Positions 16,272 through 44,134 of a stretch of DNA of 64,000 bases are shown here, one piece after another; the stretch's first letter is position 1; each line of letters opens with the position of its first letter. The notes below the pieces were generated by a model, which saw nothing but the letters and a program-made list of their open reading frames with translations, was not told the DNA's origin and searched no databases. Source of the DNA: an uncultured Chlorobiaceae bacterium (GTDB taxonomy: Bacteria; Bacteroidota; Ignavibacteria; UBA10030; SZUA-254); the NCBI GenBank assembly GCA_964512655.1, contig CAZEJT010000003.1, positions 183,719 through 247,718 of the forward strand, in the 5' to 3' direction. Both the position numbers and the translations under genes were made by a program.

Positions 16272-16314
16272 TCCGGGGACACCTTCAATTGGCTTCATTC
16301 CCTCGAATGAAAAA

Positions 16315-16341: not shown

Positions 16342-16351
16342 TTACTACAAT

Positions 16352-17233: not shown

Positions 17234-17303
17234 CCGTCACATTTTCTCGTCCTGCCGCGTCATTCAGTTATGGTACAATAATGACGAATCTAAACCAATT
17301 GAT

Positions 17304-17993: not shown

Positions 17994-18285
17994 ACCCAGG
18001 CCCCCCATACACGCCGCCACAGGTTCATGACGCGATCTGCCTCCCGAATCGTGATCCAGTTGGGATTCTTGAATATCCCGTCATCCTGAAGCCTGCTCCC
18101 GCTAAACTATATGCCCCAACAAGCGTACACAAGTTGGGACTATCTGTAGTACATATAGTCTAGGCCCTCATACCAGTGCGGGATAAGGAGGGATATCCGG
18201 GAACCTCCTTGCCTGAATCCTTCCCGGTACGGATTTTGCAGTATCGCCCGCGGTTACAATTACTCGATCTGAATTCTGAAGTAGG

Positions 18286-21900: not shown

Positions 21901-21914
21901 GTTGATGCGGCGTT

Positions 21915-22493: not shown

Positions 22494-22635
22494 GGGTTCC
22501 TTTGCCTTTTTGTTGTGCAGATTAACAGATAATACGCGAACTGAGATGTACAACAATGAAACAGCACTAATCGGTTCAGTGGTTGTGCATGAGGCGGGAG
22601 TTGGGTAGATTGAGTGAAGAGGGCTCGGAGAATCT

Positions 22636-23139
22636 ATGCGCGTGTTGACGAGCATAACGGTGTGCTTTTTCTTGTTGGGATGCAATCATGACGTGCTAGT
22701 CGTTCCATCCCAGCTACTTGGCATCGAGGTCGCTGTCACACCCTCACCTTCGGTTGGCAGCCTCACCAGCCCGGTGACCGTGACGGCGAGCGTGAAAAAC
22801 CGCGGTATTTTCACGCGGCTCTGTTATTCAGGTTGCGACTATCTGATCACCGGGATAGACTTTCGTATCTACGATCCATACTTCCAGGAGGTTTTTCTCT
22901 ATGATCCGAGGACGCGGCCGCTTTGTGCAGACTTTACTGTTTTGTTCCATCCGGGTGAGAACATCCAGGGTGCGTTCACGATCGACGGGACACTCTACGA
23001 TGCTCGTGGCGATACGGTAAAGATGGGCCGGGGTACGTACAGCATCCTCATCGAATTCACTTCCTGGGCGGAGGATCATTCCGAGGTAAGTCGGCTCGTA
23101 GTCGAGAAGCTGATTACGTTTGACTGGAAGACGGGGTGA
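22636..23139 (+). CDS. Paralogous lipoprotein family member 3 (distal copy)
   Basis: MRVLTSITVCFFLLGC lipobox, with RLCYSGCDYLITG, YDPYFQEVFLYDP, GTYSILIEFTSWAEDH and KLITFDWKTG. Same leader and terminator as copies 1 and 2. Confidence 0.75.
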   Translation: MRVLTSITVCFFLLGCNHDVLVVPSQLLGIEVAVTPSPSVGSLTSPVTVTASVKNRGIFTRLCYSGCDYLITGIDFRIYDPYFQEVFLYDPRTRPLCADFTVLFHPGENIQGAFTIDGTLYDARGDTVKMGRGTYSILIEFTSWAEDHSEVSRLVVEKLITFDWKTG

Positions 23140-23196
23140 TAATCCGGAACAACTCGGAGACACCTTCAACTGGCCTTCATTCCCTCTAATGAAAAA

Positions 23197-23231
23197 GTCC
23201 CACCTGGCGCGGCCGGTTGGGACTTTCTGCG
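23197..23231 (+). terminator. Rho-independent terminator after lipoprotein copy 3
   Basis: gtcccacctggcgcggccggttgggac stem-loop followed by TTTCTGCG. Paralogous to the 16315-16341 hairpin. Confidence 0.55.
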
Positions 23232-23367
23232 AATGAGACCTGATAGACCCGATTATGGCCTTTCCCCTGCATCAATTGAAACTCTCCGACCCGTAATTCA
23301 TTTGACTTTCTCCAAAAGGTTGTGTAGGGTAATGTAATTGGTGTCCATTACCCACTCGAGGTGGCTT

Positions 23368-24702
23368 ATGAGGACACGCATTTTCCTTCCGATCGTTTAC
23401 CTTCTCTGGCTTCACTCGACTGCCCAAACCCAAGCCTGGGTTCCGATCAAAAGCAGCTTCATGGGACCGGACACGGCTGTCCCCCCGGCCATCTGGACGT
23501 TAACAGGCTTTGACGGCAACCTCATTGTGGCCGGTTCTTTCGGTAGTGTCGCGGGTGTTGAAGCGCACTCCATTGCGCGCTGGGACGGGACCGAATGGCA
23601 CTCGCTCGCAGGTGGCCTCACCGCGTCGAATGCCCCGAATAACGAAATTCGTGCGGTCTTGGGCCTTGGAACTGATTTGTACGCCGGAGGAGAGTTCGAC
23701 TCGATCGGAGGAATCCGGGCGAAGAATGTTGCCCGCTGGGATGGTTTTGAATGGCATGCTGTTGACGAGACGATAAAGGCCTTCCCCGTACACGCGATGT
23801 TTGTGTACCAGGGTGAGTTGTACGTCAGCGGTGTGTTTGACATGGCAGTCGCGAAGCTCGTGAACGGATCGTGGGTGCGGGTGGGATCAGATACCGATTA
23901 TGCCGGCGGATCTTCGATGACCGTGTTCCAGAATGATTTATATGTCGGAGGTTTCGAGCGGGTGATGAAGTGGAACGGGTCGAGTTGGTCTGTCCTTGGG
24001 CTGAATCCGTGGCCGGAGCACATATATGCCGCCCTTGCCACCTTTGGAAATTCTCTCTACGCCAGCGTTTACTCTCCGTATAACACAAACCTCATTGCCC
24101 GGTTCAAGGACGGTGTTTGGGAGGAGATTCTTACGCCACGACTTCACAAGTCCTATGGAGCATTTAGCAACTTCGGAAGTACCTTGATCGCCGGCGGCAC
24201 ACACGAGGCGTTCGACACCTCCGATGGGGTTGTGCCGGCTAATGGTTTGGCCGTATGGGATGGATCGAGTTGGCATTCGGGGCCAGGCGGTGTTCAAGCA
24301 ATCGTGTCGGGTTTTACAATTATCGACAGCACGCTTTATGCTGCCGGGTCGTTTCAGTTCGAAGGCGACAGTGCGACCTATGGGGTCGCGAGGTTATTAC
24401 TCCCCAACGATGTTACCGGCGGCCAGCCGCACGTTCCCCGCGAATTTGCGCTGGGTCAGAACTATCCTAACCCCTTCAATCCGTCGACAACATTCACGTT
24501 TAGTCTTCCATCGAAAGCGTTCGTCTCGCTGAAAGTGTTTGATGAATTGGGGAGAGAGGTATCAACAGTTTTTGCCCAAGAGATGCCTCCGGGGGTGTAT
24601 TCAAGGCATTGGAATGCCGATGGTTTATCCAGTGGCACATACTTTTATCGGCTTCGCGCCGGCTCAATCAGCGAAACCAGGAAGCTCATTGTGGTACGAT
24701 AA
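23368..24702 (+). CDS. Kelch-like beta-propeller repeat protein with T9SS C-terminal sorting domain
   Basis: Signal peptide MRTRIFLPIVYLLWLHSTAQ. About six repeats of the form ARWDGTEWHSLAGG, ARWDGFEWHAV, MKWNGSSWSVLG and AVWDGSSWHSGPGG at roughly 50-aa spacing. [25 protein letters not shown]…GTYFYRL. Confidence 0.75.
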   Translation: MRTRIFLPIVYLLWLHSTAQTQAWVPIKSSFMGPDTAVPPAIWTLTGFDGNLIVAGSFGSVAGVEAHSIARWDGTEWHSLAGGLTASNAPNNEIRAVLGLGTDLYAGGEFDSIGGIRAKNVARWDGFEWHAVDETIKAFPVHAMFVYQGELYVSGVFDMAVAKLVNGSWVRVGSDTDYAGGSSMTVFQNDLYVGGFERVMKWNGSSWSVLGLNPWPEHIYAALATFGNSLYASVYSPYNTNLIARFKDGVWEEILTPRLHKSYGAFSNFGSTLIAGGTHEAFDTSDGVVPANGLAVWDGSSWHSGPGGVQAIVSGFTIIDSTLYAAGSFQFEGDSATYGVARLLLPNDVTGGQPHVPREFALGQNYPNPFNPSTTFTFSLPSKAFVSLKVFDELGREVSTVFAQEMPPGVYSRHWNADGLSSGTYFYRLRAGSISETRKLIVVR

Positions 24703-24766: not shown

Positions 24767-26551
24767 CTACCGTGGACGCTGTGGGAGGTTTTTCGCAATC
24801 CTGGAAATCAGACCCCCGCTTCTTTTCTTCTCCTCCACCTTCCTCAGCGGCTCGTCTTTGTGCTGCTTGTTCACGTAGACCTGCTGGGCTATGGAGAAGA
24901 GATTGAACATGAAGTAGTATAGGTTGAGGCCCGAGGGGAACCCATTGAACATCATCGTCAGAAGTACCGGCATCATCCACACCATCATCTTCTGACGCGG
25001 ATCTTTCACGCTCATCTTCTGCTGAACAAACATAGTCACGCCCATCAGGAGTGCGAGCCCGCTGACCTCGCTGATATTGAAGAAAGGGATCTTGAACGGG
25101 AGGGTCGCGACAACATCGGGGGTGGAAAGATCCTGAATCCACCACACGAAAGAAGCCTGCCGCAATTCGATCGTAGCGCTGAATACCGCCCATAGTGCAT
25201 ACAGGATCGGCAGTTGCAAGAGCATGGGGAGACAGCCGCCGGCGGGGTTCACGCCATACTCCTTATAGAGCCGCATCATTGCCTGGTTCATCTTCTGCGG
25301 ATCATCTTTGTGCTTCTCCCGGATCTCGGTCATCATCGGCTGAAGAGCCTGCATCTTCCTCATCGAGGTCATGCTGCTCTTCGTCAGGGGGTAGAGCACG
25401 ACCTTTATGAGGATAGAGAAGATGATGAGAACGACTCCGAAGTTCGAAATGAACAGCCGCAGGAAGTTGAACGTCGGGATAATGACATAGCGGGAGATCG
25501 GTCTGATGATCCAGGCGGCCCCGAGGCTCATAATCCTATCGAGCTCGACATCATACTTCTTCACAATGTCGAAGTCGAGGGGCCCCAGATAAACCGTGAA
25601 CCTGTCGGTCTCTACGGGGTTACCGACGAAGGGCATCTTAAGAGCGAGACTGTAGTTCTCCTTCGCGCCATTATCCGGCAGATGCACCCTATTGCCTTCG
25701 ATGTAGGCTCCCTGGCTCGCCTTCTCGCGGGGAATGATTGCGAGCGCGAAGTACTTGTTTCTCGCGGCCACCCAGGTCACACGGCCGGACACGTTCTGCT
25801 TTATGGGCTCATTGAAGTTATTTGCGTCAACGTCTGTGAGCTCCCCGCCTGCAAATGCCGAGGCCTTGGCGAAATTCGATTCGTTAACGGTGTTCCGTTC
25901 CTGATACCTGAGTCCTGACTCCCAGGAGACCTGGTATTCGAAATTGGAGATAATATTCTCCATGTTCTCGAACCGATACACCGCGTCGAACGAATAGAGC
26001 CCGCCATAAAAGACGAGCGATTTGACTATGCGGCTCTTCTGGTCCACGGAGAGAACCAGATCTATCCTGACCGAATCGTTCTCGCCGAGAGTAACGTCCT
26101 GCCCCCCCTGAAATTCCGGCTTGAACACGAGATTCTTCGTGTTGACGAGCTTCCCATCGGAGGTAAAAAACGTGAGGTTGAAATCGCGCGTATTGGGGCC
26201 GTCGACGAGATTTACAGGGTACTTATCCCATGTCTTAAACTGCTTTAACTCCCACGATTGGATGGCGCCGCCCCGGGTGGATATCTCCGCCCGGTAGTAC
26301 TTGGTTTCGATCCGGATGGTCTTTGCTTCCCCTGTGGCAAGTGGTGAGAAGAACTTGCCGAGAGTATCGCCTCCCGCGCGTTCATTGCCGGGAATCGGCT
26401 GGCGGTTGATCGTGGTGTCGGGCTTCGGTACGTGGACTGCGGTAGATTCTGCACCCACCGGAGCCTTGGTGGGCGGCGGGGCATTCATATACATCCAGAC
26501 CATCAGGATGATGCCGATAAGGACGAACCCTATTATTGTATTTCGGTCCAT
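24767..26551 (-). CDS. yidC: Membrane protein insertase YidC
   Basis: N-terminal TM, a large periplasmic domain, and a C-terminal five-TM core with conserved regions. Conserved position next to yidD/rnpA. Confidence 0.92.
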   Translation of the reverse strand: MDRNTIIGFVLIGIILMVWMYMNAPPPTKAPVGAESTAVHVPKPDTTINRQPIPGNERAGGDTLGKFFSPLATGEAKTIRIETKYYRAEISTRGGAIQSWELKQFKTWDKYPVNLVDGPNTRDFNLTFFTSDGKLVNTKNLVFKPEFQGGQDVTLGENDSVRIDLVLSVDQKSRIVKSLVFYGGLYSFDAVYRFENMENIISNFEYQVSWESGLRYQERNTVNESNFAKASAFAGGELTDVDANNFNEPIKQNVSGRVTWVAARNKYFALAIIPREKASQGAYIEGNRVHLPDNGAKENYSLALKMPFVGNPVETDRFTVYLGPLDFDIVKKYDVELDRIMSLGAAWIIRPISRYVIIPTFNFLRLFISNFGVVLIIFSILIKVVLYPLTKSSMTSMRKMQALQPMMTEIREKHKDDPQKMNQAMMRLYKEYGVNPAGGCLPMLLQLPILYALWAVFSATIELRQASFVWWIQDLSTPDVVATLPFKIPFFNISEVSGLALLMGVTMFVQQKMSVKDPRQKMMVWMMPVLLTMMFNGFPSGLNLYYFMFNLFSIAQQVYVNKQHKDEPLRKVEEKKRSGGLISRIAKNLPQRPR

Positions 26552-26585
26552 CGATCTGGAGAATCAGTAAATGATGAGGGGGGAG

Positions 26586-26789
26586 TTAAGGGACCGGGTC
26601 ATATCCGCCGGCATGCATAGGATGACAACGCAGCACTCTTTTCACGGCAAGCCAGATGCCCCTGGCTGAACCATACCTCTCAACCGATTCGATTGCATAC
26701 GAGGAGCAGGATGGGTAAAATCTGCAGGTGTTCGCGGCGACGGCCGGCGAGATCCACCGCTTGTAAAAGCGAAGAAGAAGGAGGATCAT
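26586..26789 (-). CDS. yidD: Membrane protein insertion efficiency factor YidD
   Basis: 67 aa with YKRWISP…CRFYPSCSSYA…HPMHAGGYDP, the hallmark YidD motif. Confidence 0.9.
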   Translation of the reverse strand: MILLLLRFYKRWISPAVAANTCRFYPSCSSYAIESVERYGSARGIWLAVKRVLRCHPMHAGGYDPVP

Positions 26790-27199
26790 TCGGATTCCCC
26801 GGGCTTCGAATCGGCGAGCATATGGAGGAGGTTTTTCATGTCCGTTTCGACATCCTGATACGCTGGGAACCGCTGCGATTTGGTGACGTTGGAGGAGTAC
26901 AGGAATACCAGTGCCAGAGGTTTTGATTGGCGCTTCAGTCGCGGCCGGAGTATCGCCTTGTTGATCCTGTATGCTTCACGTAGTAACCTCTTGAGGCGGT
27001 TCCGGTCGACTGCTCTCTTGAGCTGCCCGGGCGCCGTGAATCCCACCCCCGAACTGGATCCAGGCCGCAGCTTCAAGCGGTCGTCTGCCAGGACGAGGCA
27101 ATGGAGGTACTTTCCCTGAATCTTTCTTCCTTGCTGGAAAACAAGCTGAAAATTGTTTCTTCCGCTCAAGATCTCCGATCGCTTCAGAGTGAGTCTCAC
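26786..27199 (-). CDS. rnpA: Ribonuclease P protein component RnpA
   Basis: VRLTLKRSEILSGRNNFQLVFQQGRKI… RnpA N-terminal motif plus a basic RNR-like region (RNRLKRLLREAYR). GTG start chosen 24 nt downstream of the rpmH stop; the tracked ORF start at 27295 would overlap rpmH. Confidence 0.75.
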   Translation of the reverse strand: MRLTLKRSEILSGRNNFQLVFQQGRKIQGKYLHCLVLADDRLKLRPGSSSGVGFTAPGQLKRAVDRNRLKRLLREAYRINKAILRPRLKRQSKPLALVFLYSSNVTKSQRFPAYQDVETDMKNLLHMLADSKPGESE

Positions 27200-27224
27200 T
27201 CCCTGTGGACCGGATTGTGGGGGC

Positions 27225-27371
27225 CTAACGTTCGTCGCTGACGGTGAGCTTCCAGCGTCCTTTTTTGCGGCGGCGGGCGAGAACTTTTCTCCCATCTTTC
27301 GATTTCATGCGCTCGCGGAATCCGTGCTTGTTTTTACGTTTCCGCACACTTGGTTGAAATGTCCGCTTCAT
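27225..27371 (-). CDS. rpmH: 50S ribosomal protein L34 (48 aa), absent from the ORF track because it is under 60 aa
   Basis: Reverse-complement translation gives [48 protein letters not shown], the canonical L34 sequence. It sits immediately upstream of rnpA as in almost all bacteria. Confidence 0.92.
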
Positions 27372-27515
27372 ACTGTTCGACTCCGATTAAAATCGATGCT
27401 TCCGGGGATGTAAAAAGAGGATTGCTGTTCACAATCCTCTGCCTTCAAAAGCCTGCAATTTGACGGTGAATTGCCAATATACGCAAAGCCCGCTGCAAAT
27501 ACAAACCAATTGGGG

Positions 27516-28127
27516 TCATGCGTCGCGGTCGTACGCGATCTTCAACCATCGTTTCACATCGTCATTGATTTCCTTCAGGGAGGTGAGCGGTATTCGATGC
27601 GTGATTCGATCCTTCTTGGCGAAACCTCCCGTGTCGATCAGCCGACCGGTGGCCTTTCGGTCGCCCAGCGCCAGGCCAAGATCGATTCGTGTCTGGGTGC
27701 TCGGCTTGATCTGCGCGAAAACGTGTTTGCGGAAGAGCGGCACGATCGTCTGGCACGGACACGCCTTTACATCCTTCCCGATCCCCAGTCCGACTTTCAG
27801 CACCTTGTCGTAGATGGGCCGCAGGCCCGATTTGCCTCCGGAGAACATTTCCTCGACGTAACGCTCGGCGGCCTGCAGATATTCTTCGGGCGCCCCGGTT
27901 TCGACGGGCCTCCCCTCAACGTAGTCCGCAAACCAGGCGGCGGTGTTTGTCCCCATGCCGTGCTTGCTCTTTAACCAGGCACGTTTGGCATCGGATCCTT
28001 TCGGGCCGGTCTTCTCGATCAATGCAACCCACTCGTCCAGCGATCGGCCTGTGGATTGCTTCAACCCGGCGATCCACCTCTGTGTCATGAGTGAGCTGGG
28101 GTGAACGCTGTAGATCGAAGTTGGCAT
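27516..28127 (-). CDS. DUF4287/DUF5655 domain protein
   Basis: Roughly 200 aa with a two-domain layout. N-terminal …TGRSLDEWVALIEKTGP… (DUF4287-like) and a C-terminal …KHVFAQIKP.TQTRIDLGL… block. Assigned by family pattern only. Confidence 0.45.
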   Translation of the reverse strand: MPTSIYSVHPSSLMTQRWIAGLKQSTGRSLDEWVALIEKTGPKGSDAKRAWLKSKHGMGTNTAAWFADYVEGRPVETGAPEEYLQAAERYVEEMFSGGKSGLRPIYDKVLKVGLGIGKDVKACPCQTIVPLFRKHVFAQIKPSTQTRIDLGLALGDRKATGRLIDTGGFAKKDRITHRIPLTSLKEINDDVKRWLKIAYDRDA

Positions 28128-28143
28128 AACGTTTCTCCTCTAG

Positions 28144-28542
28144 TTACTCTCCGAGCGTGTATTCGAAATCGTAAAGGTGCTTCCCATCCACGATGTTGAT
28201 GACGAGGCTTCCGGAGATTCCCTCCAGCCCTTCCGTTCCTGAGTCGGGCACCACGGTGATTTTCAGATCGGGGGCGCCGCGGTTCATCGTGCCCCGGTGC
28301 TGAAGCACAAACGACCCCTTCCTGCCCATCAGCGTGCCGCTCACCAGCTCGATCGCAACGTATCCCGCCGATCCCTTCACGTTTCCACCGGCGGTGAGCA
28401 TTTGCCCTTTGCTCTCGCCTTCAATATCTCCGGTGAACTTCTTGTTGATCAGCATCCTGCCCAGCGGCGTCCCGAGGTATACCTCGTCCGGACCCTGGGG
28501 TTCGAGCCTTACTTCGAAGGTCCCCTTTGCGTGGTTAGTCAT
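28144..28542 (-). CDS. DUF3224 family protein
   Basis: 132 aa. GTFEV…F.GDIEG.S.G.ML pattern typical of DUF3224. Confidence 0.5.
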
Positions 28543-28549
28543 CCTTCAA

Positions 28550-28852
28550 TCACATTTCGGTCCCCTTGATCTGCTTTCTTCTCTTGCGTGTGAGCTGAAG
28601 CCCTCCAAAACCGGCGATCACGGCGATGTAATATCCGAAATCATACCACCATCCCGAGTTGAAGGGTTCGTAGATTCGCACATCATGATTGAAAATCCCG
28701 ACTATAAGCGAGAGTGGGGCAATCCACCCATGCCATACGCCGGCGAAGAACCCTGCCCTCTCAAAGGGTGAATAGGCGTTCGTTCCCGGAAAGCATCCGC
28801 TCACCGTGATGACCACCAACAGAATGGCTGCTGCAACCAAGAGCGTTTTCAT
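28550..28852 (-). CDS. Small hypothetical membrane or lipoprotein
   Basis: N-terminal hydrophobic segment with a SGC lipobox, a second hydrophobic stretch, and a basic C-terminus. Confidence 0.4.
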   Translation of the reverse strand: MKTLLVAAAILLVVITVSGCFPGTNAYSPFERAGFFAGVWHGWIAPLSLIVGIFNHDVRIYEPFNSGWWYDFGYYIAVIAGFGGLQLTRKRRKQIKGTEM

Positions 28853-28909
28853 CGTTGCCTCACTTATTGTGTGGGTTGAGGATAGCCTCCCGTCTTCTTA
28901 TTACGCGGT

Positions 28910-29497
28910 CTATTTCACCAGGCCGATCTGCTTCATGAACGCCTGGTTGTCCCAGAAGAGGGATTCCTCTATCATTCTCCCGTTTTGCCAGTGCCCGACG
29001 GTGCACATGGAGACGTTGAATGCCTTCCCGGTCGGTTTGATGCTTTTGCCTTTGCCAATCGGCATGGGTTTGGAAAACGTACCCATCATATTGCCTGTGA
29101 CACAGGTATAATCCCCTGAGCCGAACCTGATCGGGTGCTCAAGTACTCTTGTGTCGGGCGCGAAGACAAACATCCCTTTCAAGTCTTCGATATGGGTCGC
29201 AATATCTTTCGTTTGACGACTGTCCGGCCAATTGACAACAATGTTGTCTGCATGGCTTTCACCAAGGCGATCCCATTTCTGGTGGGTAAAAACTTCGAAG
29301 TCGAGCGTGTCAAACTTGATCAGGCGCGCTTCAACTGTCGCCCTTTCTTCCGCATATTTTTTCAGCTCATTCTGCAGCGAATCTATTCTGGCCTGCAGAA
29401 TGCGAGAGTTGTCTGTGCAGCTCCCGAGAGGAAGAATTAGTACCCCGAGGACAACTCCTCCAAGAATCGCCAATCCTACTAATGCTGTTAGTTTCAT
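28910..29497 (-). CDS. SnoaL-like / ester cyclase (NTF2-fold) lipoprotein
   Basis: Signal with lipobox LGSC and a coiled region. The ~120-aa C-terminus has NTF2-like spacing typical of ester cyclases (…NIVVNWPDSRQTKDIATHIEDLKGMFVFAPDTRVLEHPIRFGSGDYTCVTGNMMGTF…WQNGRMIEESLFWDNQAFMKQ). Confidence 0.5.
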   Translation of the reverse strand: MKLTALVGLAILGGVVLGVLILPLGSCTDNSRILQARIDSLQNELKKYAEERATVEARLIKFDTLDFEVFTHQKWDRLGESHADNIVVNWPDSRQTKDIATHIEDLKGMFVFAPDTRVLEHPIRFGSGDYTCVTGNMMGTFSKPMPIGKGKSIKPTGKAFNVSMCTVGHWQNGRMIEESLFWDNQAFMKQIGLVK

Positions 29498-29587
29498 GAC
29501 GCACCTCCTTATGTGTTGAGTGGAATTGGTCGTGCTCAGTTAAAGAACTCTGCGTCCGCCTTGCTCAAAAACCCGGCCGCGCCAAAT

Positions 29588-30703
29588 TCAGCCCATGCCC
29601 AGAGTTCGAAAGAACTCTTTTATGTCCTCTGCAAGAAGTTGCGGTTTCTCCATTGCCGCGAAATGGCCTCCCTCCGGATAGTCGGTCCAATGCTGAACAT
29701 TGTATCCCCTCTTGATGATTACTCGCGGGGCGAATGGATCCTCCAGGGCGAACTTTACGATACCAACCGGCACACTCACGTACTCATCTCCCCCAAATCG
29801 CCATGGGATCTTGCTGTTCTCGTAGTAAAGCCGCGTCGAGGAATGAATCGTTTGCGTGACCCAGTAGAGTGTCACGTTGGCGAGCAGCTCATCCTTCGTG
29901 AATACGCTTTCGACGTCGCCCTTGCAATCCGACCAGCCATGAAATTTTTCCACGATCCAGGCGCACAATCCGACGGGGGAATCGTTCAGTGAGTACCCGA
30001 GCGTAATTGGCTTTGTTCTTTGCTGATGGTCATATGCCCCCTCCCTGTCGTACCAGTCGGCAGCGTGTTTTCCGAATTCGATTTCCTCCTGGGTCAGGGT
30101 TTGTCCTTCCGGCAGGTAAGGAATATCCGATCCCGGGATGTAGTTTAAATGCAGACCTATCACATGCTCGGGATATTCCAGGGCGAGAGCCGTGCTCACC
30201 CCGGATCCGAAGTCTCCTCCCTGCGCGCCAAATCGCTCGTACCCGATCATCCTCATCAATTTGAACCAAAGGCGGGCCATGTAGCGGACATTGCACCCGT
30301 TCTCCGTTATCCGATCGGAGAAGCCAAATCCCGGCATGGACGGAATGACAAGATCAAATGTGGGAGCGGGCCCTTCCGTGAGGAGGGGAATGATTTTCAT
30401 GAACTCAAGAAAGGATCCGGGCCAGCCGTGCGTGACGATCAGAGGGATCGAATTCTTTTCTCCCCCTTTGATCATCATGAAATGGATTTTGTGCCCGTCT
30501 ATTTCGGCAAGGTAGTTGGGATAGCGATTCACGGCGCGTTCAATCTGTCTCCAGTCGAATCTCTTCTCCCAGTACGCGGCAAGTTTCTTCATGTAACTCA
30601 GATTTGCGCCAAACTCCCACCCCGATCCGGTTATTTCATCAGGCCATCGGGTGCGTGCGATTCTCGTTCGGAGATCTTTCAGGACCTGTTCCGGTATTCT
30701 CAC
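29588..30703 (-). CDS. Epoxide hydrolase (alpha/beta-hydrolase with EH N-terminal domain)
   Basis: N-terminal IPEQVLKDLRTRIARTRWPDE (EHN domain), HGWPGSF, and a nucleophile elbow GGDFGSGVS. About 370 aa. Confidence 0.8.
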   Translation of the reverse strand: MRIPEQVLKDLRTRIARTRWPDEITGSGWEFGANLSYMKKLAAYWEKRFDWRQIERAVNRYPNYLAEIDGHKIHFMMIKGGEKNSIPLIVTHGWPGSFLEFMKIIPLLTEGPAPTFDLVIPSMPGFGFSDRITENGCNVRYMARLWFKLMRMIGYERFGAQGGDFGSGVSTALALEYPEHVIGLHLNYIPGSDIPYLPEGQTLTQEEIEFGKHAADWYDREGAYDHQQRTKPITLGYSLNDSPVGLCAWIVEKFHGWSDCKGDVESVFTKDELLANVTLYWVTQTIHSSTRLYYENSKIPWRFGGDEYVSVPVGIVKFALEDPFAPRVIIKRGYNVQHWTDYPEGGHFAAMEKPQLLAEDIKEFFRTLGMG

Positions 30704-30869
30704 CCGGAACGTCTTGATGTGGGTCTTGGCCGCAGGGCTGAGGAAGGGCTTTCTGCGTTTTTGTTCCTCTCGCCGCTTGGGCGATGGACGATTCCGCTGA
30801 CTCGTAGGACCTCCGTGGGCTGAAGGAGTAACTTACTTATTGGAACTTCCATTTTCAACAAAATTTCTC

Positions 30870-30898
30870 TTGACGTGAACTCCAAAACTTTGTATTAT
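30870..30898 (+). promoter_or_regulatory. Candidate sigma70-type promoter upstream of dnaA
   Basis: TTGACG, 17 nt, then TATTAT with a TG immediately 5' of the -10 (extended -10). Oriented toward dnaA. Confidence 0.4.
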
Positions 30899-30936
30899 AA
30901 CTCAAGGTTGGAGGCTTCAAGCTCCTGTCGACAACG

Positions 30937-30945
30937 TGTGGATAA
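30937..30945 (-). promoter_or_regulatory. Perfect consensus DnaA box (TTATCCACA, reverse orientation)
   Basis: tgtggataa is an exact match. A second near-box tgttgataa (one mismatch) lies at 31132-31140. Confidence 0.55.
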
Positions 30946-31198
30946 CTGTTAATGAGCATTCCTGCCTCGCTCTGCAGTTGCCCGCGGAGATCTCTCAACG
31001 AAGGATATTGCACCATTAAGTCCTGTAGAATCAAGCTCTCGGGGGCACTTTCGTCTTTCGTCGGCCGTATACTTTCCACCATACCCGTCGTATCGCGCAC
31101 CCTCCCCGCCGGGAGAATTTGTTCACATGATTGTTGATAAACTGTAGACAACGGTTCAAATCGTTGTAATCCATTTCGTCTTATGAGGTTACAAAGTA

Positions 31199-32698
31199 AT
31201 GCCCACAGATGCCCCTGCCCCGAACAACTCACCCGAACCGGACCCGATTACCGGGCGAGTTGATCAGTCACCTCTCCACGAGAAGACATGGAACCAATGC
31301 CTCAAACTCATTGAGGCACGGGTAAACAGCCAGAGCTACAATGCGTGGTTCAAGCCGATCATCCCCTTGCGGATGACCGACAGGAAATTGGTCATTCAGG
31401 TGCCCAGCCAGTTCTTTGCCGACTGGCTCGAAGAACATCACTACTCGCTCCTGAACGAAGCGCTTACTCAGGTCATCGGATCGGAAATTGGAATCGACTA
31501 TGAAATCGTCGCGGAGGAGCGGGATCTGCGCTCGGCGCTCCCTCCCGCGCCGGCGGCATCCCCTGAAGCTGCGGGCAATCTCTCTACCGAGCAGCAGGCG
31601 TATCGAACGCCCTCTGCCGGAACCTCTGCCGGACCTTCCGGCGACGAGGTGAGAAGGGCTCCGGCCGTGCCGTTTCTCAACCCTCGCTATACCTTTCAGA
31701 ATTACATCAAGGGTGAAAGCAATCAGTTTGCGTGCGCCGCCGCCCTCGCGGTAGCAAACACGCTCGGGGGAACCTCGTTCAACCCGCTCGTTATCTATGG
31801 CGGCGTGGGACTCGGGAAAACCCACCTGGTGCACGCGATCGGCAATCACGTGATGCAGACGGATAGAAACAAGAGGGTGCTGTACGTTTCGAGCGAGAAG
31901 TTCACGATCGATTTCGTCGAAGCGATTCAGAAGGACCGCATTGCAGAATTCTCCAACTACTACCGCCGCGTCGATCTACTCATCGTCGATGATATCCAGT
32001 TCTTTGCCGGCAAGGAGAAGACACAGGACACGTTCTTCCACACCTTCAACGAGATCCATGCTCTCGGCAAACAGATCGTCCTCTCCTGTGACAAACCGCC
32101 GAAAGAGCTGAAAGGCCTACATGAGCGCCTGATTTCCCGCTTTCAGTGCGGCCTGACCGCAGATGTCCAACCTCCCGATCTCGAGACTCGTATCGCCATC
32201 CTGCGGAAGAAGAGCGGCGATCAGGGGATCGACCTTCCTCTCCCGGTGGTCGAGTTCATTGCTTTGAACGTCACGTCTAACATCCGCGAACTGGAGGGGT
32301 GTCTGATCGGATTGATCGCCAGATCTTCTCTGGAGAAACGCTCCATCGATCTGGAGCTCGCGAAGGAAGTTGTTCGCTCCATTATCGGCGAGGTCCGAAC
32401 GCACATTACGGTGGAAGAAATCCAGCGAGTCGTCTGCGGCCATCTGGGAATTGCCGAAGACCTCATCCGGGCGAAGACCCGGAAGCAGGAGGTGGTGAAC
32501 GCCCGGCAAATCGCCATGTATCTCACGAAGGAGCTGACAAATTCATCCCTCAAGACAATCGGCACGCATTTCGGGGGACGTGATCACAGCACCGTCATCC
32601 ATGCATACCAAACCGTTGAGGACGGGATGACAAAGGATCCCAAACAGAAAAATCTTGTCCAGCAGCTGAGAGCAAAATTGGAGCTGAGCGTTGTGTAA
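31199..32698 (+). CDS. dnaA: Chromosomal replication initiator DnaA
   Basis: AAA+ Walker A GGVGLGKTHL, Walker B LLIVDDIQF, box VII, and C-terminal DNA-binding domain (…RQIAMYLTKELT…HFGGRDHSTVIHA). The Pro/Ala-rich domain II linker is variable. Confidence 0.95.
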   Translation: MPTDAPAPNNSPEPDPITGRVDQSPLHEKTWNQCLKLIEARVNSQSYNAWFKPIIPLRMTDRKLVIQVPSQFFADWLEEHHYSLLNEALTQVIGSEIGIDYEIVAEERDLRSALPPAPAASPEAAGNLSTEQQAYRTPSAGTSAGPSGDEVRRAPAVPFLNPRYTFQNYIKGESNQFACAAALAVANTLGGTSFNPLVIYGGVGLGKTHLVHAIGNHVMQTDRNKRVLYVSSEKFTIDFVEAIQKDRIAEFSNYYRRVDLLIVDDIQFFAGKEKTQDTFFHTFNEIHALGKQIVLSCDKPPKELKGLHERLISRFQCGLTADVQPPDLETRIAILRKKSGDQGIDLPLPVVEFIALNVTSNIRELEGCLIGLIARSSLEKRSIDLELAKEVVRSIIGEVRTHITVEEIQRVVCGHLGIAEDLIRAKTRKQEVVNARQIAMYLTKELTNSSLKTIGTHFGGRDHSTVIHAYQTVEDGMTKDPKQKNLVQQLRAKLELSVV

Positions 32699-32722
32699 CT
32701 TCGCGCCGGTGTTACGAGAGTA

Positions 32723-32758
32723 CAAGTGCCCGAGTGATATCGGGCACTTGCCGTTTTT
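32723..32758 (+). terminator. Rho-independent terminator downstream of dnaA
   Basis: 10-bp stem caagtgcccg / cgggcacttg with an 8-nt loop, followed by ccGTTTTTGG. Confidence 0.7.
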
Positions 32759-32759
32759 G

Positions 32760-33187
32760 GAGATGCATGTTGATAGGTCTGTGGAGTATGGGTGCATTGC
32801 TGTGAACCTGATGTGCACAGGATTCCACTCCTGAGCGAATCATAGCGTCGGTCTAGTATCTTGTGAACAGACTGCTCGTTGTTCCCAGCGGGTTCACAGG
32901 CCGAGAACAGCATCGGGGCCGGTAAGTGGTTTGAGCAAATTGAGTTCCGGAGATATACACCTGTTAACATCTCTTATAATTAGTAGTATTCCTTCTAAAC
33001 CACTTTACTATATAATAGCAGCATAAAGAAAGGATCGTACCACAGGGGGAAACAGCGGGTAAAATTTCCATAACCCATTGAATCTATATACAGTTATCAC
33101 GGTTCTATCATTGAATTTCATGCCCAAATTTCGTAAATTTAGAGGTCATCAGCGTGCCTCGGCACACCATCCAGGAGAGGGAAAGCA
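32760..33187. other. Candidate oriC / DNA-unwinding element in the dnaA–dnaN intergenic region
   Basis: 428-bp non-coding gap. A strongly AT-rich stretch (about 32940-33180; ttataattagtagtatt…tatataatagc…) against a ~60% GC background. Three TGTGAAC/GTTCACA motifs (32801, 32862, 32892) form an inverted pair, and a near-DnaA box tgttgatag lies at 32768. Confidence 0.5.
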
Positions 33188-34303
33188 ATGAAATTTTCAT
33201 CGTCCAGCGTTGAATTACAAAAGGTTCTTGGAAGTATCGGAGGCGTCATTCCAACCAGGTCGACGCTTCCTATTTTGGAGAATTTTCTCTTCGAAGTCTC
33301 TGACAACCGGCTCCACATCACGGCAACAGATCTCGACACTTCGATGTCTGTCGCGCTTCAGGTGAAAAACGGCGAGAACGGGACTCTCGCGGTGCCGGCA
33401 AAAAGGCTGCTGGAGACCGTCCGCTCTCTTCCCAATACCGACATCAATTTCTCTTCACAGGGAGAAAACAACAAGGTGCTGATGAAGACGAACAACGGTG
33501 AGTACCGGCTCACGGGTGAATCAAGCGAGAACTACCCGGCGGTCCCGAAGTTCAAGCCCGAAGCGGAGATGAAAATCGGGAGCGACATCCTCAGCCGGCT
33601 GATTACGAAGACATCGTTTGCCGTCAGCTCGGACGAGCTCCGGCCGGCCATGATGGGCGTGCTCATTCAGATCAAGAAGAATGAAATCAGGGCCGTGGCC
33701 ACAGACGGGCACCGGCTTGTGCGGCTGATCAATTCATCGTTCGAATCGACGATGGGGGACCGCGAGGTTGTTATTCCGGCCAAGGCGCTTAACCTCGTTT
33801 TGAAATCGGCCGACGAAGCGGAGAGCGGCGTGTCATTCAACGATAACCACGCGATGTTTTCGATGGGCTCGACGCGGCTCATCTCACGGATGATCGAAGA
33901 GAAGTTTCCAAACTACGAAAGCGTTATACCTCTCGAGAACGACAAAGAGATGCTGGTCGATAAGAACCAGCTTCTTGCGTCGGTTCGAAGGACAGCCCTG
34001 TACGCCAGCTCCGCCACACATCAGGTCCGGTTCTCCCTTCGCAAGGGTTCCGTGGCGATATCTGCGGAAGACATCGATTTCGGCAGCGAGGCGCGCGAGA
34101 CCCTGCCCTGCGATTATTCTGCCGAGCCGATGGAGATCGGGTTCAATTCCTCCTACATGATCGACATGCTCTCCCACATCGACACCGACCAGGTCCAGCT
34201 GATGTTCAGCTCGCCGACCAGGGCGAGCATTCTCAAGCCCGCCTCCCAGAGGGACGGGGAGAACCTGTTGATGCTCGTCATGCCAGTGAGGTTGAGTGAT
34301 TGA
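33188..34303 (+). CDS. dnaN: DNA polymerase III beta sliding clamp DnaN
   Basis: Three-domain ~370 aa protein. N-terminus MKFSSSSVELQKVLGSIGGVIPTRSTLPILENFLFEV, and a conserved C-terminal …MPVRL. Confidence 0.93.
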   Translation: MKFSSSSVELQKVLGSIGGVIPTRSTLPILENFLFEVSDNRLHITATDLDTSMSVALQVKNGENGTLAVPAKRLLETVRSLPNTDINFSSQGENNKVLMKTNNGEYRLTGESSENYPAVPKFKPEAEMKIGSDILSRLITKTSFAVSSDELRPAMMGVLIQIKKNEIRAVATDGHRLVRLINSSFESTMGDREVVIPAKALNLVLKSADEAESGVSFNDNHAMFSMGSTRLISRMIEEKFPNYESVIPLENDKEMLVDKNQLLASVRRTALYASSATHQVRFSLRKGSVAISAEDIDFGSEARETLPCDYSAEPMEIGFNSSYMIDMLSHIDTDQVQLMFSSPTRASILKPASQRDGENLLMLVMPVRLSD

Positions 34304-34313
34304 TCGCGCCTCG

Positions 34314-35458
34314 ATGCAGCTAGCGAATCTCAAGCTCCGGCACTTCAGAAACCACATCGATTCCTACATCCAGTTCGGCGGCGGTACAAACTTGCTGCTT
34401 GGCGACAACGGCGAGGGAAAGACGAACGTCCTGGAAGCGATCTCGTACCTCTGTCTCACGAAGAGCTTTCACACCTCGAGCGACGCTCTCGCCCTGAACT
34501 TCGGCGCCGATCTTTTTGAGATCGAAGGGACCTTCCTCGGCTCCGCCGGCAGCGAGCATCACGTCCGCGTCGCCTATTCGAAATCCCCTGTCGAGAAGGC
34601 GGTTCTTGTCGATAAGCGGCGAGTCGAGCCCTTCACCGCGCTCATCGGCAGGTTTCCGATAGTGATTTTCTCCCCCGAGCACATGGCGATTGCCTCAGGA
34701 GCTCCCGCGGAGCGCCGCAAGTTCGTCGATCTGGTCATCTCGCAGTCAAGCAGCGTCTATCTGCAGGACCTGATCGCGTACCGGAAGGTGTTGAGGCAGC
34801 GCAACAAGATCCTGAGAGACGGAAAACTCCAGAGGACCGACTCCTCCGCCCTTCTTGCTCCCTGGGACGAGCAAATGGTTATCCTCGGCGCCGCATTGAT
34901 GAACAAGCGCAGGCAGTTCATCGCGGAGTTCGGGGACTTTGTCACAACCGCATATCACCATCTGATCGGCGCTGTGGAAGAGCCCTCGATCGAGTATCAG
35001 CCGATGATCCCCCTTGCAAAGCATCTGGATGACTCAGGCATCAGGGATCTCCTTCGCCGGGAGATCGAACAGGCGAGACCGGCCGAGATGAGAGCGGGGC
35101 TTACACTCGTGGGACCTCAGCGCGACGAGCTCGTGTTCAGAATTAATAGAAACGATGTGAGAAGCTTCGCGTCACAGGGGCAGCAGAAGACATTTCTGGT
35201 TGCGCTGAAGATTGCGGAGTTCTTCTATCTCAAAGACCGCGCCGGCGAGGCGCCCATTCTCCTGCTCGACGACATCTTCAGCGAGCTCGACGAGCACAGG
35301 GCGAACGAACTTTTGCAGTTTGTCGGGGGCTTGAGCCAAACATTCATCACCTCGACAAGCGTCCGGCTCTTTGAGAACGGCACCGTGTTCGCCGACTCGC
35401 AGAAACGCTTTCTCGTACGGAACGGGAACGTGAGCGAGTACCAGCTGGCGGGACTCGG

Positions 35459-35462
<4 letters not shown>
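34314..35462 (+). CDS. recF: DNA replication and repair protein RecF
   Basis: ATG at 34314 gives MQLANLKLRHFRN… Walker A GDNGEGKTNVLEAI, ABC signature, and a Walker B / D-loop LLLDDIFSELD. Confidence 0.92.
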
Positions 35463-37848
<2,386 letters not shown>

Positions 37849-37850
37849 GC

Positions 37851-38279
37851 TTGGATAACCAGCTGGCGTGGGCCGGCATATGTCTTCTACTGGCGGGATG
37901 CGGACGGGGCAGCGACGCCCCTCTCGAGGATCTTGGCCTGAAGGGATGGTCGGTAGACAGAATAAGCATCAGCAATCTTAGCAGCAAGAAAACGATTGAG
38001 CTCGACAACTACCGCGAAATGGCGTTCTTCCTCCGGCAGATAAGGCTTTGTTCGCCCCGCGGCGAAGAGAACGTCACGAGCGAATTCGATCTCAGGGTGT
38101 ACAGAAAGAAGCCCGGGGTCGATCTTTTTTCTGGTAAGGCAGGACCGCCGGAGCTTTTCGAGGATGACCTGCGCATGGGCAGAGAGTGCATAGGTCCCAT
38201 GGTCCCGGCTTCGGTGGTGGCAACACGGTGGTATTTTGAAAACGATTCACTCTATACGTTTATCAAGAGCAAGTTTTAG
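37851..38279 (+). CDS. Hypothetical lipoprotein inserted between gyrB and gyrA
   Basis: Signal with lipobox LLAGC; 142 aa; no recognisable motifs. Confidence 0.45.
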   Translation: MDNQLAWAGICLLLAGCGRGSDAPLEDLGLKGWSVDRISISNLSSKKTIELDNYREMAFFLRQIRLCSPRGEENVTSEFDLRVYRKKPGVDLFSGKAGPPELFEDDLRMGRECIGPMVPASVVATRWYFENDSLYTFIKSKF

Positions 38280-38323
38280 CATCTGACGAAGAATTCAAAG
38301 TGATCAGAACATCAGGGGAATGA

Positions 38324-40927
38324 GTGGCCGGGGTTAATGAAAAAGTAGTTCCAGTCGATATCGAAGAAGAAATGAAGGGCTCGTACATCGATTATGCGAT
38401 GAGCGTAATCGTTGCGCGGGCGCTCCCCGATGTGCGCGACGGATTGAAGCCGGTTCACCGGCGCGTTCTTTTTGGCATGCAGGAGCTGGGCCTCGCAAGC
38501 AACAGGGCCTATAAGAAGGCCGCCCGCATCGTGGGCGAGGTTTTGGGAAAATATCACCCCCACGGCGACACGGCGGTCTACGACACGATGGTAAGAATGG
38601 CACAGCCATTCTCGCTCCGCTACCCGCTGGTCGACGGGCAGGGGAATTTCGGTTCGGTCGACGGCGATGCGCCCGCGGCGATGCGTTACACCGAGGCGCG
38701 CCTCTCGAGAATCGCCGAAGAAATGCTCCGGGATCTCGAGAAGAACACGGTCGACTTTGTCCCGAATTTCGACGATTCGCTCAAGGAACCGACAGTCCTT
38801 CCCGCCCTGATCCCGAACCTCCTGGTGAACGGGACCTCGGGCATTGCCGTCGGCATGACTACGAACGTCCCCCCGCACAACCTCACCGAAGTTGTCGACG
38901 GATGCGTTGCCGTGATCGACAATCCCGATCTTCCGGATGAAAAGCTGTTAAAGATCGTGAAAGCGCCCGATTTTCCCACCGGCGGAATAATCTACGGGTA
39001 CCAGGGAGTCAAGGAGGCGTACAAGACCGGGCGGGGGAGAATCATTGTTCGCGCCAAGGCCTCCATCGAGACCGGGCGCGCCGACCGCCAGTCGATCGTT
39101 GTAACCGAGATTCCCTATCAAGTCAATAAGTCGAGCCTCATCGAGAAGATCGCCGACCTGGCTCGCGAGAAGAAGATCGACGACATCTCCGACATCCGCG
39201 ACGAGTCTGATCGTGACGGACTCCGGGTGGTCATCGAGCTCAAGCGCGACGCCAATGCGCCCGTTGTGCTCAACAACCTCTACAAGCACACGCAGATGCA
39301 GACGACCTACGGGGTCATCATGCTCGCTCTTGTGGACGGCAGGCCGGCGCTGCTCAAACTCAGGGAGATCATCGATCATTTCATCAAGCACCGCAATACG
39401 ATCATCGTCCGGCGGGCGAAGTACGAACTGAGCGAAGCCGAGAAACGGGCCCACATTCTCGAGGGATACATCATCGCCCTCGACAATATCGATGAGATCA
39501 TCAAGCTCATTAAGAAATCGAAGGATGTGCCGGCGGCCCAGGAAGGGCTGATGAAGCGGTTCAAGTTATCGGAGATCCAGGCGAAAGCGATCCTCGACAT
39601 GCGCCTGCAGAAACTCACGGGGCTCGAGCGGAAGAAGGTCGAAGACGAGTACAAAGAAACGATCAAGCTGATCGAGCGGCTCAAGGCGATCCTGGCCAGC
39701 AAGAAGCTCCAGATGCAAATGATCAAGGAAGAGCTCCTCGAGATCAGGAAGAAATACGGCGACGAGCGGCGCACGGAAATCGTTTACAAGGCCGAGGAAT
39801 TCAGCGTCGAGGACATGATTGCCGAGGAGAACGTGGTCATCACCATCAGCCACGGCGGCTTCATCAAGCGGTTCCCGGTCTCCGGGTACAGGAGACAGGG
39901 CCGCGGAGGAAGAGGGGTGACTGGCGCGACGACGAAGGAAGACGATTTCATCGAACACCTCTTCATCGCCTCCACGCACAATTATATCCTCTTCTTCACG
40001 GATAAGGGCCGATGCTACTGGCTGAAGGTGCACGAGATTCCCGAGGCAGGGCGCGCCTCGCGCGGGAAGTCGATCGTCAATCTCGTTTCGAAGCAGAACG
40101 ACGAAACCATCGCGGCATTTGTCCCCGTGCAGGAATTCGACGACAAGCATTTCGTGGCGATGGTGACGGTACACGGAGTCATCAAGAAGACCGCGCTCTC
40201 CGAGTTCGGAAACGTTCGCCGGACCGGGATCGCGGCTATCAGCATGCGGAAGGATGACACCGTAAAGGACGTGAAACTGACCGACGGGACCGAGGACATC
40301 ATCATCGGCACTCACGATGGGATGGCGATCCGCTTCTCCGAGAAGGACGCGAGGCCGATGGGCCGGAGCGCATCCGGCGTACGCGCGGTCACTCTCAACA
40401 AGGGAGACAGGGTTGTCGGCGCGGTCGCCCTCAAGCGAAGGAAGACTTCAATTCTTGTCGTCGCTCAGAACGGATTCGGGAAACGCAGCGAGCTGGATGA
40501 GTACCCCATACGGCATCGCGGTGGAAAGGGCGTCATCACGCTACGCGTTACGGACAAGACAGGAAAGATGGTCGGGATCAAAGAGGTGCTCGATAACGAC
40601 GACATCGTCGTGATGACCGCCAAGGGCGTCATCATACGCCAGCCTGCAAGGGAGATCCGAATGGCCGGACGCATCACCCAGGGCGTCAGACTCATACGCC
40701 TCGAGTCGGGTGATCAGGTTGCAGATCTTGCTGCGGTTCCTACGGAGGAGGCGAAAGAGGAATCGGAGGGAGCTGCTCCGGCAGCGCCGCCAGCTGAGAC
40801 CAAATCAGCCGAACCGGTTGCCGAGAAACCCGCCGGAGCAAAGAAGAAAGCAACAGAACCGAAGGGAGTCAAAGCGGAGGCAAAACCAAAAGCGGGATCC
40901 AAGCGAGGCGGTAAGAAGAGCCGGTAG
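38324..40927 (+). CDS. gyrA: DNA gyrase subunit A
   Basis: Catalytic region …AMRYTEARL… with the active-site Tyr, and the QRDR-equivalent region [18 protein letters not shown]-terminal beta-pinwheel repeats and a Lys/Ala/Glu-rich acidic-basic tail. Confidence 0.95.
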
Positions 40928-41804: not shown

Positions 41805-41827
41805 CGCCCCCTAAAGGGGGCGCCTAC
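41805..41827. repeat. GGTAGGCG-family hairpin (cgccccc-taaa-gggggcg + CCTAC), copy 3, overlapping the TonB receptor stop
   Basis: Same architecture as the other two loci: a GC stem with a TAAA loop, with flanking gtaggcg (41708) … cgcctac (41821) outer complements. Confidence 0.6.
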
Positions 41828-44082: not shown

Positions 44083-44134
44083 GGCAGGCTCGATGATACC
44101 TGCCCGTAGCCTGGTAATTCCAGCCGCAATTGCG

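Follow-up and report, generated by a model that had tools for sequence, protein, structure and literature searches.

In Bacillus subtilis and Clostridioides difficile, the chromosomal replication origin (oriC) comprises bipartite clusters of DnaA boxes around dnaA, with a basal unwinding system (BUS) located in the dnaA-dnaN gap (PMC8287927, PMC7561715). Boxes are also split by dnaA in the oriC1-dnaA-oriC2 arrangement of Helicobacter pylori, whose origin unwinds in one BUS-bearing sub-region (PMC8287927). For Melioribacter roseus, a member of the Ignavibacteria, oriC was predicted in the 303-bp dnaA-dnaN gap of a chromosome with two clear GC-skew transitions (PMC3534657). Finally, in Zymobacter palmae, the mnmE-rpmH side of the region has been separated from dnaA, with sdiA beside dnaA and the dnaA-side boxes kept, which provides a precedent for a break in this linkage without loss of those boxes (bioRxiv 10.1101/2025.08.05.668638). 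Here, we analyze a 64-kb stretch of contig CAZEJT010000003.1 (hereafter, the window), in which dnaA and its neighbors can be compared with these origins and an island of accessory genes lies between rpmH and dnaA.

Using Pfam profile searches over the window proteins and comparisons with relatives by tblastn, blastn, and alignment, we conclude, with a probability of roughly 0.78, that this region is the chromosomal oriC neighborhood of an uncultured Bacteroidota bacterium near metagenome-assembled genomes (MAGs) labeled Ignavibacteria, and that it carries an accessory island together with intact conserved origin signals. The DnaA protein of the window has identical copies on a 382,717-bp NCBI contig and on Logan metagenome contigs; SRR12313481 and SRR12313478 are among the metagenomes in which the organism occurs. 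The closest DnaA relatives are MAGs labeled Ignavibacteria or Bacteroidota, and neighboring proteins bear type IX secretion system (T9SS) sorting tails, which is compatible with a Bacteroidota/Ignavibacteria placement. A preliminary description of this DNA had named a plasmid or phage as the alternative; since the housekeeping genes stand in the order common to the relatives' complete chromosomes (e.g., OY969585.1 and CAWABB010000001.1), the window is chromosomal. The resulting origin map (boxes, trios, unwinding element, and promoters) covers an uncultured Bacteroidota lineage, is anchored by relatives, and should help to predict origins in MAGs and to estimate growth rates from coverage, leaving the current understanding of origins unchallenged.

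The features of dnaA and of the dnaA-dnaN gap are as follows:

31199-32698, plus strand: dnaA, 499 aa with all four domains (Pfam DnaA_N, Bac_DnaA, and Bac_DnaA_C)
32723-32750, plus strand: intrinsic terminator hairpin of dnaA, its stem conserved in four genomes
32768-32776, minus strand: DnaA box CTATCAACA, 12.6 bits
32861-32869: DnaA box TTGTGAACA, 6.4 bits
32952-32969, plus strand: weak tandem box pair GATATACAC/CTGTTAACA (CTGTTAACA at 32961-32969, 8.8 bits)
32936-33035: putative DNA unwinding element (DUE), lowest duplex stability of any 100-bp stretch in the window (z = 4.7), with the least stable 60 bp also here
32980-32997, plus strand: DnaA-trio-like run TTA GTA GTA TTC CTT CTA, read as 3'-NAN-5' on the complementary strand, its first triplet 10 bp past the box
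33111-33139, plus strand: dnaN promoter-like element TTGAAT-17-TAAATT, near-invariant in the four-genome alignment
33188-34303, plus strand: dnaN (Pfam, synteny)

Both in the four-genome alignment and in the wider set of relatives, the elements of this gap follow a fixed order: the dnaA terminator, minus-oriented boxes, a plus-oriented tandem pair, a short spacer, TTA/CTA triplets, an AT-rich tract, and the dnaN promoter-like element (which matches 8 of 12 consensus positions and was therefore not listed by our promoter scan). The spacer of the relatives is mostly GC-rich (ccc, gccc, or cccg) and is followed by TTA TTA TTA or CTA CTA CTA. These triplets, 3'-AAT/GAT-5' on the other strand, correspond to the DnaA-trio motif in the orientation found in C. 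difficile, with the top strand reading 5'-CTACTACTATTACTACTA (PMC7561715). The copy in the window is degraded: GATATACAC/CTGTTAACA is followed by tctc and then by TTA TAA TTA GTA GTA TTC CTT CTA. This module is orthologous in position, its box starting 263 nt past the dnaA stop as in loci L083 and L087, and further TGTG-anchored sites occur within 32768-32969 where relatives carry strong boxes.

Across the relatives, the module departs from chance. Specifically, forward modules outscored reverse ones in 26 of 36 loci, with the opposite result in 3, and the mean strict-trio score was 2.63, a value that none of 200 block shuffles attained (0.28 +/- 0.13). Under the published BUS search rule, which asks for at least three consecutive DnaA-trios (3'-NAN-5') no more than 16 bp from a DnaA box (PMC8287927), the window presents the weak box CTGTTAACA, a distance of 10 bp, and then six NTN triplets, a pattern that takes its significance from the orthologous modules of the relatives. 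A stricter rule calls for 3'-[G/A]A[T/A]-5' trios preceded by a GC cluster (quoted in PMC7561715); here, tctc precedes the trios and 3 of the 6 consecutive triplets fit. The gap also holds the most AT-rich 80 bp of the window (32952-33031; 72% AT vs. about 45% overall), so that the putative AT-rich DUE which the preliminary description had placed between dnaA and dnaN is indeed found there, directly beside the boxes.

These features parallel the origins of B. subtilis and C. difficile in several respects: the ancestral rpmH|dnaA|dnaN order, boxes on both sides of dnaA, and, downstream of it, plus-oriented tandem boxes that lead through a short spacer to trios of the 3'-[G/A]AT-5' type (top-strand TTA/CTA), an AT-rich DUE, and a dnaN promoter. 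They also agree with the placement of the M. roseus origin between dnaA and dnaN in the same broad clade, and the Melioribacter loci L053 and L055 carry the same box and trio module; Melioribacter-type loci have likewise lost the upstream rpmH, with different neighbors in its place, and contain no homologous island. As such, the unwinding site is most likely the dnaA-dnaN gap, acting through a box and trio mechanism. On sequence evidence alone, this would extend the box and trio unwinding module to an Ignavibacteria-like clade.

Upstream of dnaA, the gap contains a promoter and a second group of boxes:

30870-30898, plus strand: dnaA promoter TTGACG-17-TATTAT, conserved in L083 and L087 and recognizable in L088-L090
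30926-30934, minus strand: promoter-proximal DnaA box TTGTCGACA, 7.4 bits
30937-30945, minus strand: perfect DnaA box TGTGGATAA (TTATCCACA in the minus-strand listing), 16.1 bits, the sole perfect box in the 64 kb
31119-31127, plus strand: DnaA box TTGTTCACA, forming a head-to-head pair with the next box
31132-31140, minus strand: DnaA box TGTTGATAA (TTATCAACA in the minus-strand listing), one mismatch, just upstream of the dnaA start codon

The perfect box, the one-mismatch box, and the sigma-70 promoter had all been noted in the preliminary description, and all three were recovered. Since the sigma-70 scan gave 4 matches when 4.4 were expected from shuffles, i.e., no excess, our promoter assignments rest on conservation. 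The positions of the boxes are conserved as well: 40 nt downstream of the promoter -10 element lies a minus-oriented box whose distance to the dnaA start is -262 in the window, compared with about -180 to -275 in most relatives, and L083 and L087-L090 share a head-to-head pair at about -80 and about -57 to -67. Because these boxes keep their distances, lie downstream of the dnaA promoter, and stand next to the start codon, they most likely form a dnaA promoter/operator through which dnaA is autoregulated; they may in addition serve as an auxiliary half of the origin. In the window and its close relatives, a search of this gap for box and trio modules, run in both orientations, gave essentially none.

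To quantify box enrichment, we counted boxes in 50 non-redundant loci, including the window. Perfect boxes occur at 2.2 per kb in the rpmH-dnaA gap and 0.72 per kb in the dnaA-dnaN gap, compared with 0.07 per kb elsewhere; one-mismatch boxes reach about 3 per kb in both gaps vs. 0.33 elsewhere. Within the window, the strict Escherichia coli consensus has no match in the dnaA-dnaN gap, and we replaced it with orthology and a lineage matrix built from the gaps of the relatives with the window excluded, which reads T-T-A-T-[C/T]-[C/A]-A-C-A. A scan with such a matrix had been suggested as a check on the preliminary description. At 6 bits, the two gaps that flank dnaA come out ahead of every other 500-bp window in the 64 kb (30801-31300, 6 matches; 32751-33250, 4 matches); at 8 bits, the dnaA-dnaN gap falls to about fourth place. 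The Mackiewicz rule defines a cluster as at least three boxes with a mean spacing below 100 bp (as quoted in PMC7561715). Allowing at most one mismatch to TTATCCACA gives 2 boxes upstream of dnaA and 0 downstream, and the relatives' matrix at 6 bits or more gives 6 and 3-4, respectively. Box clusters flank dnaA on both sides, as in a bipartite origin. Another dense cluster, at 11727-11921 inside mnmG (TTATCAACA, TTATCGACA, and ATATCCACA within less than 200 bp), ranks second or third in box density; it is not conserved in the mnmG genes of relatives, and we rejected it as part of the origin.

The density of boxes upstream of dnaA lends itself to a different interpretation, namely that oriC proper lies in the rpmH-dnaA spacer, as in origins of the Pseudomonas oriC1 type, and that the dnaA-dnaN gap holds a terminator, the dnaN promoter, and regulatory boxes. 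In the window, the sole perfect box and the strongest cluster both fall in this spacer, which in the relatives has three times the density of perfect boxes seen in the dnaA-dnaN gap; an AT-rich stretch of 80 bp (30823-30902; 70% AT) is also available. Yet this stretch coincides with two back-to-back promoter regions, and the boxes, downstream of the dnaA promoter and by the start codon, have the layout of an operator. Moreover, the window and its close relatives lack the box and trio module in this gap, and a 3.3-kb insertion, together with an 83-bp insert in L083, has been tolerated right at its edge. Weighing both sides, we consider an upstream oriC very unlikely. Of the bipartite origin proposed in the preliminary description, in either or both gaps, the presence of boxes on both sides of dnaA holds, whereas the combination of box, trios, and DUE is confined to the dnaA-dnaN gap. 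In having its boxes split by dnaA and one candidate unwinding region, the locus resembles H. pylori; the latter origin is experimentally verified and differs in box consensus and neighboring genes.

Taking the dnaA-dnaN gap as the unwinding site, we infer the following sequence of events from the DNA sequence and by analogy with origin work in Bacillus, Clostridioides, and Helicobacter (PMC8287927, PMC7561715). DnaA would bind the box array of the dnaA-dnaN gap, and the plus-oriented tandem boxes ending at 32969 would nucleate a DnaA-ATP filament onto the adjoining trios. This filament would then open the AT-rich stretch at about 32970-33035, much as basal unwinding occurs in Bacillus and Clostridioides. 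The upstream boxes, past the dnaA promoter and before the start codon, would autoregulate dnaA and could constitute an auxiliary half of the origin. The island, inserted in layers into what would be neutral DNA separating the divergent rpmH and dnaA promoters, has its genes pointing away from the origin and co-directional with replication; the conserved origin and promoter elements all remain in place, and the island would be neutral for initiation.

GC skew provides a further line of evidence on origin position. Within the window, cumulative G-C reaches its lowest value at 32,201, and 33,458 and 35,058 nearly tie with it. Among 20 syntenic relatives, whose skew switches sign at dnaA, G-C skew to the right of dnaA exceeds that to the left in all 20, and a local minimum falls between -1 and +3 kb of the dnaA start in 16. 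In loci with neither rpmH nor dnaN beside dnaA, the corresponding numbers are 7 of 15 and 3 of 15. The skew is not purely an effect of coding strand, because skew is negative in a gene on the plus strand at the far left and positive in minus-strand genes on the right. Altogether, the oriC environment recognized in the preliminary description is supported by the two box-dense gaps flanking dnaA (at 6 bits), the skew minimum, the skew of the syntenic relatives, and the M. roseus precedent. The switch of coding strand that it located at 30704-31198 is real and only local, since genes on the plus strand lie to the left (15119-24702) and genes on the minus strand to the right (41824-44911).

Several observations weigh against our reading of the region as an origin with an inserted island. 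One ancestral trio is disrupted (TTATTATTA to TTATAATTA at 32974-32982). The boxes of the dnaA-dnaN gap are weak: none is within one mismatch of TTATCCACA, and the box adjacent to the trios scores 8.8 bits. The box and trio pattern of the window is not significant by itself, so that the case is one of orthology with the relatives. In these respects (a Bacteroidota locus known from sequence, weak trio-adjacent boxes, and a mutated trio), as well as in the island that splits rpmH from dnaA, the window is unlike B. subtilis and C. difficile. Skew is partly confounded by the divergent gene orientation, and the window covers 17% of a 382,717-bp contig, so that a deeper minimum may lie elsewhere. 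Lastly, Pfam, ARAGORN, and repeat searches of the window found no integrase, transposase, flanking repeats, or adjacent tRNA for the island.

Some of these points bear on whether oriC lies outside the window altogether, with the boxes around dnaA serving to regulate transcription of dnaA and dnaN, as happens where dnaA has left the origin. The small visible fraction of the contig leaves room for this, and there is no skew switch at dnaA in relatives without rpmH and dnaN beside dnaA (Balneolales and Cytophagia-like loci), which implies that uncoupling of dnaA from the origin does occur in the phylum. Against this stand the full ancestral synteny block retained in the window, the conserved unwinding module, a local minimum of the skew, and the presence here of the 64-kb stretch's least stable DNA; in addition, the M. 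roseus origin is predicted in the dnaA-dnaN gap of a chromosome in which dnaN, and not rpmH, adjoins dnaA. An origin elsewhere therefore appears unlikely, and we retain the dnaA-dnaN gap as the likely site of oriC.

We next consider the break between rpmH and dnaA. Window proteins were compared by tblastn with 80 related loci, and adjacency was counted in those 63 others whose upstream flank was long enough. Of these, 26 show the order rsmG-mnmG-mnmE-yidC-yidD-rnpA-rpmH|dnaA-dnaN-recF-dciA-gyrB-gyrA, or rpmH-dnaA adjacency within it, and in them about 0.4-0.6 kb separates rpmH from dnaA. Adjacency was seen in 10 of 14 other loci at 55% DnaA identity or above, 10 of 19 at 50-55%, and 6 of 30 at 45-50%. 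L088-L090 (DnaA identity 71-73%) have the uninterrupted block too, including the DUF2461 and SIS genes further left. In all, the unbroken order is found in about 30 related genomes. In the window, rpmH lies 3.8 kb from dnaA with a 3.3-kb island between them:

27372-27506, minus strand: rpmH-proximal half of the ancestral rpmH-dnaA spacer, retained, about 90% identical to L083 up to 27506
27416-27440, minus strand: hairpin with a T-run, AGAGGATTG-TGAACAG-CAATCCTCT-TTTTT, terminator-like in the scan, 44-70 nt upstream of the rpmH start
27516-28127, minus strand: DUF4287/DUF5655 gene (Pfam), within a window-specific cassette at 27507-28151
28144-28542, minus strand: DUF3224 gene (Pfam), older island
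28550-28852, minus strand: 100-aa membrane protein with a lipoprotein-like N-terminus and no Pfam match, older island
28910-29497, minus strand: SnoaL-like protein with a lipoprotein signal (Pfam), older island
29588-30703, minus strand: epoxide hydrolase (Pfam), older island
28152-30859, minus strand: the older island as a whole, its four genes plus the upstream region, collinear with L083 (73-79% identity)

None of the five accessory genes was detected by tblastn in L003-L082, and the four genes of the older island are also absent from L088-L090; among the related loci compared, island genes were found solely in the window and L083. The genes are thus absent at the orthologous site and the breakpoints are defined, as expected for insertion of a genomic island. 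The break between rpmH and dnaA is therefore derived here and is due to insertion, judging from these sequence comparisons, in agreement with the broken linkage claimed in the preliminary description. Such breaks are not a rare type of event: rpmH-dnaA adjacency has been lost repeatedly at greater DnaA distance, and its loss is common in the wider phylum. The case differs from Z. palmae, in which transposition carried the rpmH side to another genomic location; in the window, rpmH remains 3.8 kb away and accessory genes have been inserted.

The insertion, given as 3.2 kb in the preliminary description, was not a single event. In the closest relative (L083-L086; DnaA 89% identical), the DUF3224, 100-aa, SnoaL-like, and epoxide hydrolase genes also adjoin dnaA, and the slot of the DUF5655 gene holds 4.5 kb of different DNA instead (L083 2484-6959), with a BglII-type endonuclease, an N6/N4 methyltransferase, a faint DDE gene resembling insertion sequence IS1 (Pfam), an HTH_17 gene, and two unknown open reading frames (ORFs). 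The blastn homology breakpoints between the window and L083 are at 27506/27507 and 28151/28152, and L083 has an 83-bp insert of its own at 30859/30860. In L087 (DnaA 78%), an Nramp gene lies upstream of dnaA. As such, the sequence comparisons indicate that an insertion did take place and that the island is layered and variable; moreover, it occupies one of three interrupted junctions (see below). It may be observed that the sister genome L083 carries a restriction-modification system directly beside its origin.

The opposite history, in which the five genes were ancestral at this site and were lost in the relatives with nothing inserted, would fit the lack of mobility genes, flanking repeats, and clear compositional deviation (GC 0.50-0.59 vs. 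about 0.55). Direct and inverted repeat searches at the island flanks gave short, chance-level matches only. Island genes have a GC content of 0.50-0.59 and a third-codon-position GC content (GC3) of 0.60-0.75, compared with 0.53-0.58 and 0.58-0.78 in their neighbors, so that the composition is not clearly foreign. Deletion would require many independent and precise losses over lineages spanning 46%-73% DnaA identity, each restoring the same spacer of about 0.4-0.6 kb. It would also have to account for the unrelated cassettes that fill the rpmH-side slot in the window and L083, and for the Nramp gene of L087. We regard it as highly improbable and continue with insertion.

Once the two spacer halves of the window (27372-27506 and 30860-31198) are joined, their alignment to the uninterrupted rpmH-dnaA spacer found in L088-L090 is collinear. 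The island therefore has the rpmH-side elements on one side and the dnaA promoter on the other, and its junction lies about 10 bp upstream of the -35 element of that promoter. The region is thus an example of an origin that tolerates gene gain: the island sits between two divergent promoters, and no conserved box, promoter, or unwinding element has been disturbed. About 70 nt upstream of the epoxide hydrolase gene (30790-30860, minus strand) show about 93% identity to L083, compared with 73-79% in the adjoining coding DNA. This segment contains a weak promoter-like element, TTGAAA-17-TAAGTT, back-to-back with the dnaA promoter, and then a conserved leader.

On the rpmH side, the hairpin at 27416-27440 is kept with and without the island (L083 and L088-L090) and has no Rfam match. 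It could be an rpmH leader/attenuator or an insulating terminator; to call it the island terminator would be too simple, since it also occurs in island-free relatives. The hairpin is preceded by a conserved element, TTTG-20 nt-TATATTGG (27473-27504, minus strand), that resembles a Bacteroidota-type promoter.

The remaining genes of the origin block, together with the accessory DNA that interrupts it, are as follows:

10843-11553, minus strand: rsmG (Pfam GidB), order as in relatives, left part of the conserved origin-proximal synteny block
11613-13499, minus strand: mnmG (Pfam GIDA), order as in relatives
13562-14956, minus strand: mnmE (Pfam MnmE), order as in relatives
15119-24702: second accessory block of about 9.8 kb (Pfam), splitting mnmE from yidC
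24767-26551, minus strand: yidC (Pfam)
26586-26789, minus strand: yidD (Pfam)
26786-27295 (longest ORF), minus strand: rnpA (Pfam)
27225-27371, minus strand: rpmH (Pfam)
34296-35462, plus strand: recF (Pfam, synteny)
35459-35749, plus strand: dciA/DUF721 (Pfam, synteny)
35758-37848, plus strand: gyrB (Pfam, synteny)
37851-38279, plus strand: window-specific, lipoprotein-like 142-aa ORF
38324-40927, plus strand: gyrA (Pfam, synteny)

All genes named in the preliminary description were confirmed by Pfam, apart from the 100-aa membrane protein; it had missed dciA/DUF721 and the 142-aa ORF. The block is interrupted at three junctions, rpmH|dnaA, mnmE|yidC, and gyrB|gyrA. The mnmE and yidC genes are adjacent in L088-L090 and L003/L004; the block that separates them in the window contains two unknown ORFs, a sigma-70-family factor, an NAD-binding protein, a 1204-aa S8 subtilase with a T9SS sorting tail, a DUF3237 protein, and a protein with a T9SS tail. 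In the gyrB-gyrA gap, the 142-aa ORF has a lipoprotein-like N-terminus (LLLAGC); the 440-bp segment 37849-38288 is absent from L083, and the ORF is also absent from L090. L088 and L089 carry a DUF2204/DUF6036 gene at this position. Given the ORF, the empty slot, and this replacement, gyrB|gyrA is a third variable junction.

The rpmH|dnaA slot is filled by a DUF5655 gene in the window, by the restriction-modification and IS-like block in the 89% relative, and by the Nramp gene in the 78% relative. We tentatively raise the idea, which we consider doubtful at present, that this spacer is a recurrent hotspot of cassette exchange beside oriC in a genus-level lineage, with mnmE|yidC and gyrB|gyrA as further slots. 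The conserved stretch of about 135 bp upstream of rpmH, with its hairpin, could be a recombination or insulation boundary. If such a hotspot exists, the otherwise very stable origin block would offer accessory genes several defined landing pads at high gene dosage.

A few minor observations concern annotation. NCBIfam gave no specific names for the island genes. With gathering thresholds, Rfam returned no match anywhere in the window; when 27200-33300 was searched at E <= 1, the sole matches, both sub-threshold, were AsdA inside dnaA and a snoRNA model, and we rejected the two of them. ARAGORN called a tRNA-Ser(tga) at 38725-38817 (minus strand) inside the gyrA coding sequence, which is without Rfam support; we regard it as a probable false positive and do not take it for an attachment site of the island. 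Finally, the longest rnpA ORF overlaps rpmH by 71 nt, and its Pfam match starts at residue 37. Because of this overlap, the position of the match, and the shorter rnpA products of relatives (128-138 aa), the true rnpA start is probably internal to the longest ORF.

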